Shown one piece after another: positions 5,286 to 60,788 of a stretch of DNA of 64,000 bases; within the stretch, counting starts at the first letter, position 1; the number at the start of each line of letters is the position of its first letter. Position numbers and translations under genes: made by a program. This DNA is from an uncultured Chromatiales bacterium (GTDB taxonomy: Bacteria > Pseudomonadota > Gammaproteobacteria > DATFLL01). Below the pieces are notes generated by a model. That model was not told the origin of the DNA. It saw only the letters and a program-made list of their open reading frames with translations, and did no database searches. Where the stretch lies: assembly GCA_964561765.1 (NCBI GenBank), contig CAZLQI010000006.1, positions 3,297 to 67,296 on the forward strand, written 5' to 3'.

Positions 5286-7964
5286 GTGGCCAGGGACACG
5301 GGAGCGGAATGTCGCATGCAACGCATCCTCATTATCGAGGCATCCACTACGCTGTCGCGTGTGCTGGAAGCCCAGATCACACCATACTATCCGATCGAGA
5401 TAATACGCTCGCACCGCGCCGGGCTGGCACGGCTGGCCGAGTCCACCGAGGCCTTTAGCGCTGTCGTGATGGGATGGCCGGAGGCCTCCGATCCGGTGAT
5501 CGAGGAGTGCCAGGCGTACTTGTCCGAGCGGTCCGCCTGGCAGCATCTGCCCCTCCTGGTGCTGAGCCATTCGGTGGATACACCGAGGCTGGACTGGGTT
5601 GCAGGTCGCCCGCATGGTGCGTTGCTGCACTGGGATGATTTTCGTGAGGTCGCGGCATTGCTGGACGGATTGCTGGATGCGTCCCTGGCGCTGGCGTCCA
5701 CGGTCGCCGGTCGCGATGAGCGTATTCGCGTGTTGTTTGTCGATGATTCGCGTACCGCGCGCGTGAAAATTCGTCGTCTTCTCGAAGCCGAAGGCTATGA
5801 TGTCGAGACAGCAGTCGATGCCGATGAGGCCCTGATGCGGGCCAGGCATCGGCACACGCGGGCGTTGCCTGCAGAGGAGGGCGAGGCAGGCGTGGCCGGT
5901 GATGAGACGGTGGAGCGCGCGGGCTTTGATATCGCCATCATCGATTACTTTATGCCGGGTGTCACTGGCGACAAGTTGTGTCGGCGCCTGCGCGCCGATC
6001 CGCGTACCAGCGGCATTACCACCGCCGTTTTTACCAGTACCTACCGGGACCAGATCATCACTGATTCATTGGCCGCCGGGGCGGTGGAGTGCATGTTCAA
6101 GAACGAGTCCGATGCCCTGTTTCTGGCCCGTGTTGCCGCGATGAGTCGCACGGTGCGCAGTACGCGGCGTATCGAGCATGAACGCAGTCGTTTGCAGGGC
6201 ATTCTGTCCTCGGTGGGTGATGGGGTATATGGGGTAGATCGCAACGGCATGCTCACCTTCATGAACCCGGCGGCATTGCGTATTCTGGGTTATGCACCGA
6301 AACAGGGGACGGATTTTATCGGGCGCTCGTCGAGTGTGGTGTTTCACCCCGATGCGCCGACTGTGGAGGGAAGCAGGTGTCCGTCCTGTGTCCCGCGACA
6401 GAGCGTGAAGGCGGCGCTGGCGCAGGAGTCAGTGTTCACACGCCATGATGGCACGGCGGTGCCAGTGGAACTGACTCTCTATCCGTTGTCCATCGGGGGC
6501 CGGGTTGAGGGGGCGGTCATCGCTTTTCGCGACATCCGCGTGCGCAAGCAGCTCGAAGATGAGTTGAGGTGGCAGGCCAGCCATGATCCGCTGACCCGTG
6601 TGTTCAACCGTAAGTATCTCGAAGATGCGCTCGAGCAGGAAGTCCGGCGGTTGCGTCGTGGGACTGAGGCCGGTGCATTATTGTATCTCGACCTGGACCG
6701 GTTCAAATATATCAATGACACTGCAGGCCATGCTGCGGGCGATCGCCTGTTGATCGAGATTGCCCGGCATCTGACGGGGCGGCTGCGCGAGACCGATCTG
6801 CTGGCGCGTATCGGTGGTGACGAATTTGCGCTGATTCTGCGCGGGGTGGGGCGTGAGGATGTATTCCAGGTCGCCGACGAGTTCCGGGCCTTGCTGACCG
6901 GGTATACCTTTTCGTATGAAGGGCGCAACTACAAGATCAATGGCAGCATTGGTGTCGCGCTGCTCGATCGACATATCGACAGTACGGCCCAGGCCCTGGC
7001 CAATGCCGATATCGCCTGTCACATTGCCAAGGGTCAGGGCCGCAACCAGACACACGTATTCCAGGCGGAGTGTGACGAGCGGGTTGCCATGGACCTGGAC
7101 CTCGGCTGGTCTACCCGGTTGCATACCGCCCTCGAAGAGGGTCTGTTTGAACTGTATTTTCAGCCCATCATACCGCTGGTGGCCATTGCGCGCGAGGACA
7201 TGGTGCGGCCAGGGTTGGTCGATGGGCGCTGGCAGCAATGGGCGCACGCCCATCCGGCGCAGCCGCCGGTCTATGAGGTGTTGATGCGACTGCCTGATGC
7301 ACGCGGTGAACTGATCTCGCCCAATGCCTTTATCCCCACCGCCGAGCGGTTCAATCTCATGCCGGCGATCGACCGCTGGGTGGTTGCCCGGGCCCTGAAG
7401 AAACTCACCGCATTGCATCGCCAGGGTCGGCGTGTGGTGTTCAGTATCAATCTTTCCAGCCAGAGCCTGGTCGACGCCGAACTGGCGGGGGTGTTGCGTG
7501 ATGCGCTGGCCGAGCCGGGGCTGGATGCCTCCTCGGTGGTATTGGAGATCACCGAGGAGGCATCCAGCCGTTGCCTGGACGCCGCGCAGCATTTTATCGA
7601 GGAATTCAGCGCGCTGGGTTGCCGGTTCGCTATGGATAACTTTGGCAGCGGCTCTTGTTCCTTCACGCATCTCAAGCACCTGGCAGTGGATTTCATCAAG
7701 ATCGACGCTCTGCTTACCCAAAGTATCGTCCATGATGCCACGGACCTTGCCATCATCCAGTCCATCACCGATATTGCCCACTCGCTGAACAAGCTCGTCG
7801 TCGCTGAGGCCGTAGAGTCGCCCGATATCTTGCAGGCACTCGTCGGCAGCGGAGTGGACTTCGTGCAGGGACGCCACCTGTGCCCACCTATTGCCGCCCT
7901 GCCGGGTCTTTGCGAGGGGGGGGAGATCGCTGAGGCGAAGGTTCACTATCGCCAGCGCCAATGA
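5286..7964 (+). CDS. Multidomain c-di-GMP signalling protein: pseudo-receiver + canonical receiver (REC) + PAS + GGDEF + EAL. Likely true start is MQRILII at 5316
   Basis: REC2 has DIAIIDYFMPGVTGDK (phospho-acceptor Asp). REC1 has AVVMGWPEAS with Gly at the acceptor position. PAS around SRLQGILSSVGDGVYGVDRNGMLTFMNPAA. GGDEF intact (RIGGDEFALIL). EAL domain has EVL in place of EAL, DNFGSG in place of DDFGTG, plus EITEE and KIDALL. Confidence 0.85.
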   Translation: MARDTGAECRMQRILIIEASTTLSRVLEAQITPYYPIEIIRSHRAGLARLAESTEAFSAVVMGWPEASDPVIEECQAYLSERSAWQHLPLLVLSHSVDTPRLDWVAGRPHGALLHWDDFREVAALLDGLLDASLALASTVAGRDERIRVLFVDDSRTARVKIRRLLEAEGYDVETAVDADEALMRARHRHTRALPAEEGEAGVAGDETVERAGFDIAIIDYFMPGVTGDKLCRRLRADPRTSGITTAVFTSTYRDQIITDSLAAGAVECMFKNESDALFLARVAAMSRTVRSTRRIEHERSRLQGILSSVGDGVYGVDRNGMLTFMNPAALRILGYAPKQGTDFIGRSSSVVFHPDAPTVEGSRCPSCVPRQSVKAALAQESVFTRHDGTAVPVELTLYPLSIGGRVEGAVIAFRDIRVRKQLEDELRWQASHDPLTRVFNRKYLEDALEQEVRRLRRGTEAGALLYLDLDRFKYINDTAGHAAGDRLLIEIARHLTGRLRETDLLARIGGDEFALILRGVGREDVFQVADEFRALLTGYTFSYEGRNYKINGSIGVALLDRHIDSTAQALANADIACHIAKGQGRNQTHVFQAECDERVAMDLDLGWSTRLHTALEEGLFELYFQPIIPLVAIAREDMVRPGLVDGRWQQWAHAHPAQPPVYEVLMRLPDARGELISPNAFIPTAERFNLMPAIDRWVVARALKKLTALHRQGRRVVFSINLSSQSLVDAELAGVLRDALAEPGLDASSVVLEITEEASSRCLDAAQHFIEEFSALGCRFAMDNFGSGSCSFTHLKHLAVDFIKIDALLTQSIVHDATDLAIIQSITDIAHSLNKLVVAEAVESPDILQALVGSGVDFVQGRHLCPPIAALPGLCEGGEIAEAKVHYRQRQ

Positions 7965-41363: not shown

Positions 41364-41759
41364 ATGGCGTCGCTTATACAGTTGAAAGATGGAGGGGCGG
41401 GCATACGGCTGGCGATCGAGAAGACCGAAGTCCGGATAGGTCGTGAACCTGATAACGATATCTGTATCGACGATGAACTGGTCAGCAAGGTCCATGCCCT
41501 GATTCAGAAGATCGATAGTCCCGATGGCGATGGGCAGATTGCCTATTACCTGCAGGATCTCGACAGCACCAATTGCACCTATGTCAATGATGCCGCGGTA
41601 GCGCTATATCGACTCAAGAATGATGATGTCATCCGCATCGGTCGGCATTACTTTCGTTTTGTCGACGAACTGCAAGCCAATCTGGACGATACCATCAAAC
41701 TGCATAAGTCCTGGATCCCAGGCGTTTATTATACTAAAAGTAAAAAGAAGACCCGCTAG
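41364..41759 (+). CDS. Standalone FHA-domain protein
   Basis: VRIGREPDNDICIDDELVSKVHALIQ...YYLQDLDSTNCTYVNDAAV...DDVIRIGRHYFRF. Confidence 0.8.
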   Translation: MASLIQLKDGGAGIRLAIEKTEVRIGREPDNDICIDDELVSKVHALIQKIDSPDGDGQIAYYLQDLDSTNCTYVNDAAVALYRLKNDDVIRIGRHYFRFVDELQANLDDTIKLHKSWIPGVYYTKSKKKTR

Positions 41760-41859
41760 ACAACCAGCGGCACCGTGCCGTTAAGGCATGCAGCTTGGAT
41801 TCTGTGTGTCTGTCGCCGTGGTGTCGTATGTACCTATTTGCATGCGTATCGAGAAAATT

Positions 41860-42261
41860 ATGAGTGACGACAAAAAGACGTTGGCCCGAGACAAGCTTGA
41901 CCAGACGGTAGCTCGGGCCAGACAAAACCGCGAGGCCCGTGAGCTTGGGTATCGTGAACAGGCATTGAAGCTTTATCCCTGGATATGTGGGCGTTGTGCA
42001 CGTGAGTTCAATCGCAAAAATCTCCATGAATTGACCGTGCACCACCGCGACCACAATCACGATAACAATCCATCCGATGGCAGCAACTGGGAATTGTTAT
42101 GTCTGTATTGCCATGACAATGAGCATGCACGTTATGTCGATCAAGGTGGTGCGATCGACGCACCGGGTGCAATGGAAAGTGAAGCGGCCACCCATAAACC
42201 ATTCGCCGCGCTGGAGGCCTTGTTGAAAGGCCGCACGGAGGGTGATGACAGCGGGCGGTGA
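41860..42261 (+). CDS. yajD: HNH nuclease family protein YajD
   Basis: GYREQALKLYPWICGRCAREFNRKNLHELTVHHRDHNHDNNPSDGSNWELLCLYCHDNEH closely parallels E. coli YajD. Confidence 0.8.
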   Translation: MSDDKKTLARDKLDQTVARARQNREARELGYREQALKLYPWICGRCAREFNRKNLHELTVHHRDHNHDNNPSDGSNWELLCLYCHDNEHARYVDQGGAIDAPGAMESEAATHKPFAALEALLKGRTEGDDSGR

Positions 42262-55258: not shown

Positions 55259-56602
55259 TCAGCGAGCGAGGTGTTCAAAGATGCGAAAGCCCGCTAAATA
55301 GGTGCCGACGGCCGAACCGAGGGTGCTGAACATGAACACCAGCAGTGTGCGACTGACGCGGTTGTGCCACCAGCCTGCGGGATGACGGGTGTCACTGCGC
55401 AGTCGGCTGAAGTCGCCGACACTGGGTCGGCGCAGGAAAATCTCCACGCCGGCAGTAACCATGCCCGCGCCGATCATCGGGTTGAGTGAGGTCAGCGGGG
55501 CGGCGAGAAAAGCGGTCAGTATGGTCAATGGGTGGGCACCGGCCAGCAGGGCACCGAAGGCGGCGAGTCCACCGTTGATTACCACCCACTCGAATACCAG
55601 CTTCCAGCCCAAGGCCGCACTGTGCGAAAAGCCCAGCGCGAAGCCGATGAGGATCACGACCACGATAAGCCAGGGCAGGCGCCGCGGCCAGCGGCTGGCG
55701 GACGGGACCTGTTCGAGCCGGGCCAGTTCTTCATGCAGCGCAGGGGCATCAGGCAGCGGACGGGCCTCCAGCGCGCTCTGGATACCCTTGAGATGACCCG
55801 CACCGACCACGGCCAGCAGATGGCGCCCGGTCCGGGCCGAGGTGCTGGCCGCGTGCGTATCGTCGTCCCTGGCGCTCACCGTGCTGGCAGTCGCACCGGT
55901 CTCCCCGGATTGAGTGTCGTCCAGATCCGCCAGCAGGCGCAGGGCCATGTAGCGATCACGCTCGGCAATCAGCGGCTCATAGAGTTCGCGGGCCTCGCTG
56001 GCAAACTGGGCAAAGGTCGATTCCAGCATATCGCCGTCCTTGAGGCGCTCGATCTCCTCTTCACTGACCTGCTCGCGCGAGACCACGCTGGCCAGCAGGC
56101 CGGAGAGCAGGTAGGCGCGTCGCCACCAGGGGACAGCGCGATAGATGCGCCGTAGGGTGATCCCCACATCGCGGTCAATGAGCAGTAGGCCCAGGTCGTG
56201 GGCCTCGGCGTAGGTGACGGCGGCGCGCATCTCCTCACCGGGCTGGATGCCGAACTGCTCGGCCATGCGTTGCTGATAGGCGCCCAGCGCCAGGCTGGCG
56301 GCAACCATGGCGGTCTTGCCTTCGCGCATCATGCGAAACAGATCCATACGCGCCAGCGCGTCCGGGTTGATGAGGGCGTGGTAGCGGCTCGGACACAGCT
56401 CGACGGCGACGGTGTCGTAGTCGCCAGTGGCCAGCAGTTCACGGACCTTGTCTGCGCTGGCCCGGGAGACATGGGCGGTGCCGAGCAGGGTCAAGCGGTC
56501 TGGGCCGAAGGTCAGTGAGACCATAGGTTGCGGTGTGGCAGGGGCGGTATCGGTGGCGGGAATACTGTCAGGGGCGGACATGGACAATACCTCGGGCAGC
56601 AA
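55259..56602 (-). CDS. TraB/GumN-family protein with C-terminal TM segments
   Basis: LTLLGTAHVSRASADKVRELL...DTVAVELCPSRY... matches the TraB family. Confidence 0.65.
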   Translation of the reverse strand: MLPEVLSMSAPDSIPATDTAPATPQPMVSLTFGPDRLTLLGTAHVSRASADKVRELLATGDYDTVAVELCPSRYHALINPDALARMDLFRMMREGKTAMVAASLALGAYQQRMAEQFGIQPGEEMRAAVTYAEAHDLGLLLIDRDVGITLRRIYRAVPWWRRAYLLSGLLASVVSREQVSEEEIERLKDGDMLESTFAQFASEARELYEPLIAERDRYMALRLLADLDDTQSGETGATASTVSARDDDTHAASTSARTGRHLLAVVGAGHLKGIQSALEARPLPDAPALHEELARLEQVPSASRWPRRLPWLIVVVILIGFALGFSHSAALGWKLVFEWVVINGGLAAFGALLAGAHPLTILTAFLAAPLTSLNPMIGAGMVTAGVEIFLRRPSVGDFSRLRSDTRHPAGWWHNRVSRTLLVFMFSTLGSAVGTYLAGFRIFEHLAR

Positions 56603-57746: not shown

Positions 57747-59009
57747 TTAGTGTCGCTGCGAGTCGGGTTTGCCCGTTGTCGGGGGAGGCAGACTGGTGGC
57801 GCGGTGCAGGGAATCATGTCCGAATCGTGCCCGGATGTGATCGGCGATCCGATCCAGGGCCTCCTGGCCGTGGTGTGCAGCCGCGGTGACCGGCGTGCTC
57901 GCACTCGCATCGGTATCGGCGAACAGTTCCCCCTGTCGCGAGGGGGCGAGCGGCGTGTCCTCATCGAAGCCGCTCACGCCCATACCGATGAGGCGCAGCG
58001 GCGGATGTGACGGGGGCAGCCGGGTGTCGAAGAGCCCGCGCACGGTCTGCCAGAGGGTGTCCGTGGTGTGGGTTGGGCTGGGCAGGGTGTGGCTGCGGGT
58101 CAGGGTGTGGAAGTCGGGGAAGCGGACCTTGAGATGGACCGTGCGGCCGCGTAGCCCGAGTTGACGCAGGCGCCAGGCCACCTGTTCGGTGAGCTGGAAC
58201 AGCACGGCACGCAGGGCGTCACGATCGGCGATATCGACCTCGAAGGTGGTTTCACGAGAGACCGATTTGGCCTCCGCGTTCGCGATGACGGGGCGCGGAT
58301 CGATGCCGCGGGCAAGGTCCAGAAACCGTAGACCCTGCTTGCCGAAATGATGGGTCAGGGTGGCCGGGTCCAGGCGCCGGAGCTGACCCATGCGCTGGAC
58401 GCCGAGACGTTGGAATACGCCCTGTGCCACCTTGCCCGCGCCCCAGAGGCGGCTGATGGGCAGCGGGTCGAGAAAGGAGTGCACCTGCGTCGCCATGACC
58501 TCGACAAAGCCGTCGGGTTTGTCGAGATCGGAGGCCAGTTTGGCCAGGAATTTGTTCGGTGCCACACCGACCGAGGCGATGAGGCGCAGTTCTGTGCGGA
58601 TGTCTTGCTTGATGCGCCGACCGATCACGGTGGCGGACCCGAACAGGAGATGGCTGGCGCTGACATCAAGGAAGGCCTCGTCGAGTGACAGGGGTTCGAT
58701 GATCGGTGTGTAGCGGGTGAAGATGGCCTGGATCTGCCGAGAGACCTCGGCATAGAGCGCAAGGCGCGGTGCCAGTATCACCAGTTCCGGACACAGGCGC
58801 CGGGCCGCGACCATCGGCATGGCGCTGTGGATGCCGAAGCGGCGCGCCGCATAGCTGGCGGCGGCGACGACTCCGCGGCCTTCCGGGCGCCCGCCCACCA
58901 CCACCGGTTTGTCCGCCAGCGCGGGCTGCGCGCGGATTTCCACCGAGGCGAAAAACGCATCCATATCGATATGGAGGATCATCGCTAGGAATCGGGCATC
59001 ATGGGACAA
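57747..59009 (-). CDS. dinB: DNA polymerase IV
   Basis: ILHIDMDAFFASVEIRAQPAL...PVVVGG; full Y-family architecture plus an acidic tail; alternative start at 58982. Confidence 0.85.
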   Translation of the reverse strand: MSHDARFLAMILHIDMDAFFASVEIRAQPALADKPVVVGGRPEGRGVVAAASYAARRFGIHSAMPMVAARRLCPELVILAPRLALYAEVSRQIQAIFTRYTPIIEPLSLDEAFLDVSASHLLFGSATVIGRRIKQDIRTELRLIASVGVAPNKFLAKLASDLDKPDGFVEVMATQVHSFLDPLPISRLWGAGKVAQGVFQRLGVQRMGQLRRLDPATLTHHFGKQGLRFLDLARGIDPRPVIANAEAKSVSRETTFEVDIADRDALRAVLFQLTEQVAWRLRQLGLRGRTVHLKVRFPDFHTLTRSHTLPSPTHTTDTLWQTVRGLFDTRLPPSHPPLRLIGMGVSGFDEDTPLAPSRQGELFADTDASASTPVTAAAHHGQEALDRIADHIRARFGHDSLHRATSLPPPTTGKPDSQRH

Positions 59010-59269
59010 TCACAGCGTCAGGTACGGGCCGGCAAGGCCGGGTGATGGGGAGACAGGGCAGCGTGTCGCCGTCCCTCCGGTGCAGTCTGTGAATTGTACG
59101 TCGTTGACGTGCGAAGGGGAATGCGGGCTGGCGCCAGGGTCTTGCCTCCACACCTTGCACCAACATGACGTTTCTATCTGCACCAACGCGGCTTCTGTGA
59201 GGAGTGCAGCGGCGAGTGGAACTTTGCGCCACCTCTTTGAGGCGAGCATCGAGACATTGACGCCGTGTC

Positions 59270-59710
59270 GTGGGGTGTTGCATGCTGCCTGTGTGGGCAG
59301 CATGGAGGGGGGCGATCACCGATGGAGGATTAAGGAGCGTGGGGAAAAACGAAAAGGGCGCACCCAATCAAGACAAGCGGCCGATCGCGCGAGACTATTT
59401 TCTTGAGCAGCAGTTGTGTCGAGCGATACGCGAGCGCAAGGCGGTGCGTTTCCTCTATGATAACGAGCAGACCTATCGGATACTCAATCCCTATATTGTC
59501 TACAAAGAGGCGCAAGGCCGGGTTCTGGTGGGTGGGGTGCGTGTCTATGACGAATCGGAAATCTTCAAGCCGGCGGCGCCACGCCGCTATGAGGTGGGAC
59601 GCATTGCCCGGCTGGAACTCACCGACGAGCACTTTAGCATCGATCACCGCTTCAGCTCCGATCGCGATGAATTCAGTAACGAGATGATCTGCGCCATAGA
59701 TCGGCACTGA
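59270..59710 (+). CDS. Small standalone WYL-like domain protein (likely start GTG 59339 after GGAGGA)
   Basis: KAVRFLYDNEQTYRILNPYIVYKEAQGRVLVGGVRVYDES...RRYEVGRIARLELTDEHF fits the WYL pattern (VxFxY...PY...YLVG...RxFxLxRIxxLExxxxxF). Confidence 0.5.
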   Translation: MGCCMLPVWAAWRGAITDGGLRSVGKNEKGAPNQDKRPIARDYFLEQQLCRAIRERKAVRFLYDNEQTYRILNPYIVYKEAQGRVLVGGVRVYDESEIFKPAAPRRYEVGRIARLELTDEHFSIDHRFSSDRDEFSNEMICAIDRH

Positions 59711-59889
59711 GCCGGCGCCTGTACGCACCCTGCTGACAGGGAATTAGCGCTACGATCGTGTTGACTCTCCTCACTTAAACCATCATTTGAATCCGGGATC
59801 CGCGTTAGTACGCCATGGATCGCGAAAGTCATGTGAAAACCGTCCCTGCCCAGAAGGGATCATCGCTAATGCGGTTGTGGACTCCGGGC

Positions 59890-60040
59890 CTGCACCGGAA
59901 GGTACGCCAATAACGGCAAAGTGCTGATGAGGTAATGCATTGCTAATAAATTGATGAATGCAAAGATAGCGTTGTTATTGGGGGCGTATTGAATCGAATA
60001 TTGATATCAATCGACTGATTGTCTAAAGTCGGGAGCGTGT
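59890..60040. promoter_or_regulatory. AT-rich region with perfect 12-nt palindrome ATTGATATCAAT and repeated ATTGAT half-sites; gggatt-N9-aatccc follows just inside the ORF
   Basis: Read directly. Confidence 0.35.
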
Positions 60041-60788
60041 GGCGTCGATATATGTGATGCGCGTCACGAAAATAGGGATTTTATGGAATAATCCCGTGCC
60101 AAGGATGTGCGACTGTACGGATAGAATTCAATGGGTTTGGCGACCGGCGTCACTAACCTGGATCCGGATGAGAGGACACGCTGTGACTTGTACACACGCT
60201 GAGAGCTGCGACCTTTATGTCCAGTTTGCTATGGAACCCTCGCTGAGGCTGTGGAAGCAGCACTTCTGTGAGGCCAAATTCGAACGCTGCGCCCGATTTC
60301 AAATTGCTATTTCGGGCCATGCTGTGCCCCTCGGTCTTCTGCCTAACGGCAAAGAGCTTCAGGTTGCGGGTCGTTCGCAAGATGAAATTAATGCCACTGC
60401 CCTCTTCAATGCCATTCTCAAGGGCCGTGCGGGTATGGTGAAATCCTTTATCCGCACCCGTTCCCCTTCAACACATGTGGCCAGCAGCGATGGCACCACT
60501 CCGGTGATGGTTGCCGCCAGCGTCGGGCGGGTGGAGATCATGGGCCTGTTGTTGGAGGCGGGCTGCAGCCCGCATGCAAGAAATCAGGCAAGCCAATCAG
60601 CCCTGGAAATTGCCGAAGCGGGCGGATATGCAGAGTGTGCCACACTGTTGCGTGAATACCTCGTCAAGACCCCGATGCGGGTCGAGGCGGATGTCGCCGT
60701 CTCCGCCAGCAGTCTGGACTCGACCCGCGGTGGTGGCATGGCCGACGTGTTGCGCTTTTTGCGTCACCTCAATCCTCTGTCGCACTGA
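60039..60788 (+). CDS. Ankyrin-repeat protein with Cys/His-rich N-terminal module (start uncertain: 60039, 60057 or 60165)
   Basis: N-terminus HAVTCTHAESCDLY...WKQHFCEAKFERC (C-x5-C...C-x6-C); ANK repeats (GTTPVMVAASVGRVEIMGLLLEAGCSPHARN..SALEIAEAGGYAECATLL). Confidence 0.6.
   Translation: MASIYVMRVTKIGILWNNPVPRMCDCTDRIQWVWRPASLTWIRMRGHAVTCTHAESCDLYVQFAMEPSLRLWKQHFCEAKFERCARFQIAISGHAVPLGLLPNGKELQVAGRSQDEINATALFNAILKGRAGMVKSFIRTRSPSTHVASSDGTTPVMVAASVGRVEIMGLLLEAGCSPHARNQASQSALEIAEAGGYAECATLLREYLVKTPMRVEADVAVSASSLDSTRGGGMADVLRFLRHLNPLSH

Follow-up and report, generated by a model that had tools for sequence, protein, structure and literature searches.

The 64,000-nucleotide (nt) stretch of contig CAZLQI010000006.1 that was analyzed here, referred to below as the window, derives from an uncultured Chromatiales bacterium and carries dinB, the gene for the translesion DNA polymerase IV (Pol IV), head-to-head with a small open reading frame (ORF) that is the subject of this analysis. 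The small ORF encodes a WYL-fold protein, that is, an Sm-like SH3 barrel, and belongs to an unnamed, rare family of WYL proteins that are devoid of a helix-turn-helix (HTH). The product is not a transcription factor. Instead, it is probably a free-standing WYL protein that binds a ligand of the single-stranded DNA (ssDNA) or single-stranded RNA (ssRNA) type and that does not regulate dinB, its position beside the polymerase gene being incidental. The coordinates of the elements under study are collected in Table 1.

Assignment of the small ORF to the WYL fold was based on profile matches, a structural model, and fold comparisons. The GTG start codon at 59339, which is preceded at a distance of 10 nt by the sequence GGAGG, is favored both by gene callers and by the closest homolog (P0002), which also comprises 123 amino acids. 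Use of an in-frame GTG codon at 59270 would extend the protein to 146 amino acids (59270-59710), and the 23 additional residues of this reading are not conserved in homologs and are too short to form a domain. The Pfam WYL profile (PF13280) matched the ORF at a sub-threshold level (E = 0.0025, 18.2-18.8 bits vs. a gathering threshold of 21.8 bits) along almost its entire extent (positions 4-69 of 70) with no competing family, and the WYL model of PADLOC matched with E = 3.8e-6. Among 94 aligned members of the family, from which the conservation counts given below also are taken, the PADLOC model matched 48 and the Pfam profile matched 22 at E ≤ 0.01 with a best value of 1.3e-6, whereas none of the 94 matched another Pfam family. 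No further domain was detected in the small ORF with Pfam and NCBIfam profiles. A search of Protein Data Bank (PDB) sequences with the family profile returned only chance matches to UshA (E ~0.009) and non-significant matches to CapW and BrxR (E 1-1.6), and comparison at the level of the fold was required in its place. An AlphaFold2 model derived from the family alignment (pLDDT 92.4, pTM 0.82) possesses a helix at residues 20-31, barrel strands at 34-40, 46-56, 62-71, 80-85, and 89-98, and a last strand at 115-119, with a five-stranded Sm-like barrel spanning residues 34-98. When the model was compared to the PDB with Foldseek, the top 20 matches all were the WYL regulators DriD, PafBC, BrxR, and CapW (probability 1.0, TM-scores of 0.51-0.60, ~95 residues aligned), and Sm/LSm proteins ranked next. 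The profile match and the Sm-like SH3 β-barrel accord with membership of the WYL superfamily (PF13280; Makarova et al., 2014) and bear out the sequence-only reading of the window, which had proposed this fold for the protein and had recognized no HTH.

The absence of an HTH was evident both in the model and in searches with Pfam and NCBIfam profiles. Helix 20-31 is the sole helix, and residues 1-19 were modeled with lower confidence and without secondary structure. A WCX domain, which encompasses ~100 residues, also is absent, as the barrel is followed by ~25 residues that include only strand 115-119. As the protein has no DNA-binding domain, it is unable to bind an operator by itself. The characterized regulators DriD of C. 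crescentus, PafBC of Actinobacteria, SiwR, CapW, and BrxR possess the same helix and Sm-like barrel as the window protein. However, DriD, SiwR, CapW, and BrxR consist of ~290-330 residues per chain, and fused PafBC of ~640, in which an N-terminal winged HTH is joined by a linker to the WYL domain and a C-terminal WCX domain follows. These proteins are dimeric transcription factors that are encoded beside their targets, whereas the window protein is only 123 amino acids long and has no conserved neighbor. PafBC, DriD, CapW, and BrxR all require the N-terminal (winged) HTH and the WCX domain (PMC6789036, PMC11662680). Thus, the HTH, the WCX domain, and the conserved co-location with a target that typify HTH-WYL-WCX transcription factors all are missing here.

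The family to which the protein belongs comprised 208 clusters (50% identity) at E ≤ 1e-3 and 78 clusters at E ≤ 1e-10 in an exhaustive HMMER search. Members are nearly all 95-150 amino acids in length, typically ~100-135 residues, and every named member is annotated either as "hypothetical protein" or as "WYL domain-containing protein." The family is known almost solely from metagenomes, and the only member from a cultured organism that was found is WP_155989686.1 of Thermithiobacillus tepidarius. Locus scans were not feasible with the broad alignments A2 and A3 owing to their diversity, and narrower scans recovered close relatives only. Tyr-40 is present in 87 of the 94 aligned members (93%) and Arg-47 in 91 (97%), position 61 is basic (Lys/Arg) in 67% of the family, and position 82 is basic (Arg/His) in 87%. 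The series R82-x-Y/F84-x-x-x-(R/K)88-I89 follows the pattern of the canonical WYL motif RxFxxxRI. The N-terminal tail is basic and proline-rich with a mean net charge of +3.7, a conserved PAPR motif marks its end, and the median isoelectric point (pI) of the family is 9.3.

The most unusual feature of the protein is a pair of family-specific cysteine residues, of which Cys-27 in the helix is found in 80 of the 94 members and Cys-118 in the last strand in 84. The two residues co-vary. Among 154 scored sequences, 125 possess both cysteines, 17 neither, and 12 one only (Fisher p = 1.7e-13, a value that is inflated by the relatedness of the sequences), and paired replacements recur, for example by Gly/Tyr and by Arg/Tyr. 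This pattern in the alignment argues for a direct contact between the helix and the last strand, possibly in the form of a disulfide or of a shared metal site.

By analogy with characterized WYL domains, the most likely activity of the protein would be the binding of short single-stranded nucleic acid. The nucleic acid would be contacted by the conserved residues Tyr-40, Arg-47, Lys/Arg-61, and Arg/His-82, which by their spacing may be placed at the ssDNA contacts of DriD (Y168, R176/R178, and R204; PMC9186387) and of CapW (S144, R164, and R184; PMC11662680). Conserved basic residues line the ligand groove of WYL domains (PMC4012209), and the basic, proline-rich tail of the window protein may add unspecific affinity. 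As there is neither an effector nor a DNA-binding domain, the output would have to consist of occupancy of the nucleic acid, of Sm-like oligomerization, or of contact with a partner protein. The location beside dinB would have arisen by rearrangement or deletion at a synteny breakpoint without formation of a regulatory unit, and dinB of this clade would simply lie outside recognizable LexA control. WYL barrels that lack a classical HTH and act as binders of single-stranded nucleic acid, and not as sensors of transcription factors, are reported for Thermotoga elfii Pif1 and for the Cas13d accessory protein WYL1 (bioRxiv 10.1101/163188; PMC6547453). These barrels are reported to form one chain with a helicase or with an RHH domain and to belong to a defined partner system, whereas the window protein is free-standing and has no fixed partner.

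The identity of the polymerase gene was examined with Pfam and NCBIfam profiles. The minus-strand ORF at 57747-59009 matched the Pfam families IMS (1.7e-49) and IMS_C (1.1e-29) and scored 396 bits with the NCBIfam Pol IV equivalog PRK02406 (cutoff 256). With the UmuC model the score was 89 bits vs. a cutoff of 431, and therefore the polymerase is of the DinB type. The combination of an IMS catalytic core, an IMS_C little-finger domain, and an equivalog-level match identifies the product as DNA polymerase IV. In public gene calls for the same contig (GCA_006240815.1 / VAOX01041761.1), as well as by alignment with relatives, dinB starts at the ATG codon at 58982, and the longer ORF reading begins at a TTG codon at 59009. 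A β-clamp-type motif, QGELF, can be read off the translation in the C-terminal part of the protein, and this part falls within the reach of ordinary Pol IV models, with the PRK02794 alignment extending over residues 3-407. The spacer that separates dinB from the divergent WYL gene amounts to 356 nt between the favored starts, or to 329 nt if TTG 59009 is used, the latter being the control region of "roughly 330" nt that the sequence-only reading had placed between the two head-to-head genes.

Adjacency of dinB and the WYL gene was found only in the strain of the window itself (L001, L002). Relatives with DinB identities of 73% (L016), 72% (L017, L018), and 63% (L023, L024) keep the synteny downstream of dinB, namely the genes for Sel1, TraB, ABC2_membrane, and ABC_tran proteins. 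The divergent neighbor of dinB in these relatives is an operon for ABC_tran, FtsX, and RND-adaptor proteins with no WYL gene, and synteny with L016 breaks exactly at the dinB start. As the upstream neighbor of dinB in relatives differs, the junction of dinB and the WYL gene represents a lineage-specific synteny breakpoint. Across this junction the G+C (GC) content also declines, being ~65% for dinB but 49-58% for the WYL gene and the spacer of 457 nt that follows it. Homologs of the WYL protein with 77%, 59-65%, 46%, 38%, and 24% identity were located in five other contexts. The 77% homolog (P0002) follows an RND adaptor gene, the 59-65% homologs sit between genes for an alpha/beta hydrolase and a yajD-like HNH protein, the 46% homolog (L022 759-2361) is convergent with a gene of the TraB/PrgY/GumN family, and the 38% homolog is surrounded by unrelated genes of metabolism. 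Distant family members are positioned beside IS1595-family transposases in two unrelated contigs (L014 3530-6315; L025/L026 3455-4883). In one case the member is situated 112 nt downstream of the transposase, and the surrounding region also encodes a phage capsid protein and an SU10 adaptor. In the second contig, the transposase is found ~1.5 kb upstream, separated from the family member by KilA-N and a hypothetical gene. These distant members may be passengers of insertion sequences (IS). On the 88.6-kb contig Ga0209918_1000052, dinB (63%) and a WYL homolog (61%) are ~20 kb apart. As P0002 directly follows an RND adaptor gene, the WYL gene perhaps was brought beside dinB in the window by loss of a macAB-like operon that had lain between them. 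In the window, too, a gene of the TraB/PrgY/GumN family (55259-56602) is close to the WYL gene, at a distance of two genes.

The spacer was searched for a LexA box by consensus and by matrix. No CTGT-N8-ACAG sequence with one mismatch or fewer is present at 58983-59338, and none of 13 LexA consensus patterns (two from gamma/beta and eleven from other lineages) gave a convincing match in the spacer. Across the entire window, 20 sites with one mismatch or fewer were counted vs. 20.1 expected by chance. A LexA matrix compiled from 13 E. coli sites, which may not be the motif of this host and which scores its training sites at 19-31 bits, reached a maximum of -3.0 bits in the spacer, a value that was equaled or bettered in 71% of random 356-nt segments of the sequence. 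No lexA homolog was found in the window with E. coli LexA as the query, and the host's own motif therefore was not derivable. Moreover, the 20 further window genes that were annotated by NCBIfam are housekeeping only and include no SOS gene with which the box could be calibrated. Thus, dinB has no recognizable LexA box and lacks the operator of an SOS regulon member, as had been supposed from visual inspection of the region. The sole perfect CTGT-N8-ACAG sequence of the window, CTGTGTCCCGCGACAG at 6386-6401, has a GC-rich spacer and lies inside a GGDEF/EAL gene (5286-7964), and almost certainly is a chance match.

The dinB relatives L016 and L017 (72-73%) also are without a LexA box, their best score being -9.8 bits. 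As both lack the WYL neighbor as well as the box, the missing box does not need a WYL gene as its explanation. A LexA-like sequence, CACCGTTGTATTAAACAGTA (11.5 bits, one core mismatch, AT-rich within a GC-rich spacer), is located ~130 nt upstream of the dinB start in the more distant relatives L023 (3862-3881) and L024 (50-69), whose DinB proteins are 63% identical to that of the window. Comparison of these upstream regions suggests that more distant relatives keep a canonical box, and with it SOS control of dinB, and that the clade of the window may have lost it. In this gammaproteobacterial clade dinB would seem to be without recognizable LexA control whether a WYL gene is nearby or not.

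Other candidate elements in the spacer also were assessed. The half-site-like sequence CTGTgaattgtaCGTC that the sequence-only reading had picked out is indeed present, but its right half fails to match (Table 1), and the sequence does not constitute a LexA box. A TACAAT hexamer on the dinB strand that overlaps this sequence is a candidate -10 element. A perfect 9-6-9 inverted repeat near to the WYL gene has the core CTGC-N8-GCAG, a symmetric two-mismatch variant of the LexA core, and could be a hairpin in the 5′ untranslated region or an operator. Three such repeats occur in the window vs. 2.9 expected, and upstream of homologs the repeat is not conserved and other palindromes are found instead. 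Owing to this chance-rate frequency and lack of conservation, the role as an operator is regarded as unproven and was not adopted. No promoter-like or terminator-like site was found within the spacer, and a single promoter-like match inside the WYL ORF is at chance level. The region 58900-60250 gave no Rfam match. The spacer shares no motif with the regions upstream of dinB in relatives, with which no alignment was obtained outside the coding start.

Table 1. Positions in the window of dinB, the divergent WYL gene, and elements of the spacer between them.
Feature	Position	Strand	Basis or remark
dinB, DNA polymerase IV, 411 amino acids	57747-58982	minus	Pfam and NCBIfam profiles, gene calls, alignment with relatives
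Divergent intergenic region, 356 nt	58983-59338		LexA scans, Rfam, comparison with upstream regions of relatives
Half-site-like sequence CTGTgaattgtaCGTC	59087-59102	plus	None of the 4 right-half positions agrees with ACAG; absent from the best LexA-scan matches
Perfect 9-6-9 inverted repeat CATGCTGCC-tgtgtg-GGCAGCATG	59281-59304		Ends 35 nt before the WYL start codon
Stand-alone WYL-fold protein, 123 amino acids	59339-59710	plus	Profiles, model, fold matches, family, conservation

Several points weigh against the interpretation of the small protein as a nucleic acid binder that lies beside dinB incidentally. The pI of the window protein is 7.8, and thus it is less basic than the family median of 9.3. 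The placement of its conserved residues on DriD and CapW was made by spacing and secondary structure, without residue-level superposition, and nucleic acid binding is a prediction for every member of the family. WYL domains also can bind other ligands, such as c-di-GMP (PMC11880434). The divergent pairing with the gene for a damage-tolerance polymerase that has no SOS box is a suggestive coincidence that could reflect lineage-specific recruitment. In addition, three of the homolog contexts, i.e., after an RND adaptor gene, beside TraB, and 20 kb from dinB, are loosely the same neighborhood, which hints that the WYL gene drifts within one chromosomal neighborhood. This pairing would acquire meaning if the WYL protein sensed damage in the form of ssDNA and controlled dinB via the spacer in place of LexA, acting as the sensor subunit of a split regulator, with the DNA-binding partner supplied by a gene at another locus. 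The WYL domains of DriD, PafBC, SiwR, and CapW sense ssDNA after damage (PMC9186387, PMC11804915, PMC10693628, PMC11662680), and the head-to-head arrangement across 356 nt with no LexA box, the perfect inverted repeat at 59281-59304, and the seeming loss in this clade of the box that L023 and L024 keep (CACCGTTGTATTAAACAGTA, 11.5 bits) all would be consistent with such a role. However, the protein has no HTH or WCX domain, and the family profile revealed neither a second WYL gene nor a partner gene in the window. None of the relatives examined shares the adjacency, L016 and L017 have neither a LexA box nor a WYL neighbor, and the inverted repeat occurs at chance rate and is unconserved upstream of homologs. 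The LexA-independent control of dinB in the manner of PafBC or DriD that the sequence-only reading had implied thus finds no backing in the domain content, the gene order, or the box-less relatives, and a split regulator is decidedly unlikely. SiwR was set aside as a precedent for control of dinB: its "dinB-like" targets are DinB/YfiT-like metalloenzymes and not Pol IV. An accessory subunit similar to YolD or UmuD, in which a small barrel of the WYL superfamily binds the Y-family polymerase and modulates translesion synthesis, also was considered. YolD (PF08863) is a member of the WYL superfamily whose gene lies adjacent to those of Y-family polymerases, and YolD/YqjX have been proposed to be analogs of UmuD that act with YqjW/UvrX in Gram-positive bacteria (PMC4012209, PMC6511836). 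The window protein likewise is a small, stand-alone WYL-fold protein of ~120 amino acids that is encoded beside a Y-family polymerase gene. Nevertheless, YolD is encoded in one LexA-controlled operon, co-directionally with UmuC-like (YqjW/UvrX) polymerases, and is not enriched near the DinB-type YqjH (PMC6511836), whereas in the window the genes are divergent, the polymerase is of the DinB type with an ordinary C-terminus, no LexA box is present, and the adjacency is not conserved. The Pfam YolD profile matched none of the 94 members at E ≤ 0.01, and the window protein not even at E ≤ 1. Action as a polymerase subunit accordingly is very unlikely.

A different explanation would place the origin of the gene in a mobile element, for example as a passenger gene of a phage or IS, whose product would sequester ssDNA or some other signal and thereby dampen defense or damage responses under WYL control. 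The gene would have reached dinB by horizontal transfer. The IS1595-associated distant members, one of them in phage-like surroundings, a GC content below that of the flanking genes, and the location of the gene at a synteny breakpoint speak for this proposal. Phage proteomes also hold uncharacterized WYL-like proteins of 90-154 amino acids with the same fold and TM-scores of up to 0.64 (BFVD A0A8S5VTW8, A0A6M3T968, and A0A6J5RNM4). However, the latter are only 14-18% identical to the window protein, no family member matched a PHROG, and no relatives were found in IMG/VR (queries A4, P0092, and P0046) or in GenBank phages. Moreover, a search of plasmids gave one marginal archaeal match only, the close homologs are located among housekeeping chromosomal genes, and the gene is flanked by no integrase, repeats, or tRNA within the region examined, such that a mobile origin is unlikely. 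Stand-alone WYL barrels without an HTH may represent a more widespread theme that has yet to be studied. The cysteine pair raises the prospect of a small redox- or metal-responsive protein in which ligand binding or oligomerization is gated by Cys-27 and Cys-118, either through a reversible disulfide or through a metal site that the two residues share. The high conservation of both residues, their strong covariation, and the recurring paired replacements agree with this role, but the related sequences are not independent and the p-value is inflated, the covariation may be due to a plain packing contact, and other conserved metal ligands are absent, which leaves such gating doubtful. The most far-reaching proposal unites several of these elements. 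The family would form a new class of free-standing WYL sensors of single-stranded nucleic acid that are redox-gated by Cys-27 and Cys-118. In the lineage of the window, the gene would have been recruited beside a dinB that had lost its LexA box, and its product would influence translesion synthesis in trans, whether through binding of Pol IV or of ssDNA gaps in the manner proposed for YolD and UmuD or as the sensor half of a split WYL regulator. This composite is highly improbable. The preferred interpretation is, as above, a free-standing WYL protein that binds single-stranded nucleic acid and for which dinB is an incidental neighbor.

WYL domains currently are seen as ssDNA-sensing switches of HTH-containing regulators of damage responses and phage defense. 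The family described here consists of the barrel alone, accompanied by a conserved helix, C-terminal strand, and cysteine pair of its own. If ssDNA binding is true, the family would reveal the role of a WYL domain that has no DNA-binding output. For the question of dinB control the value of the locus is mainly negative: adjacency to dinB and absence of an SOS box are not evidence for control by a WYL protein here. Overall, the family is a new variant within the known WYL superfamily that is of modest interest to WYL specialists and of low interest as a control system for dinB.

Additional observations were made on the surroundings of the WYL gene and its homologs. In the clade of 59-65% homologs (L003-L009 and L019-L021; e.g., L003 8001-8785), the yajD-like HNH gene follows the WYL gene after 20 nt or with a 4-nt overlap, as if the two genes were one operon, and a conserved promoter-like element, TTCGGCTAGAATA, is located upstream of the WYL gene. 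The yajD-like gene of the window itself (41788-42261) lies 17 kb from the WYL gene. The ORF that precedes it (region 41364-42261) appeared FHA-like by eye. Both spacers that flank the WYL gene in the window are unusually long. The GC content is 49-55% at 59400-60400, which covers the 3′ half of the WYL gene, the 457-nt spacer, and the start of an ankyrin-repeat gene, compared to 60-69% in flanking genes. Ankyrin proteins are uncommon in free-living Gammaproteobacteria. The gene in question (60039/60168-60788; Ank_2, 1.9e-15) follows the WYL gene in the same orientation and encodes a protein with a cysteine-rich N-terminal part.

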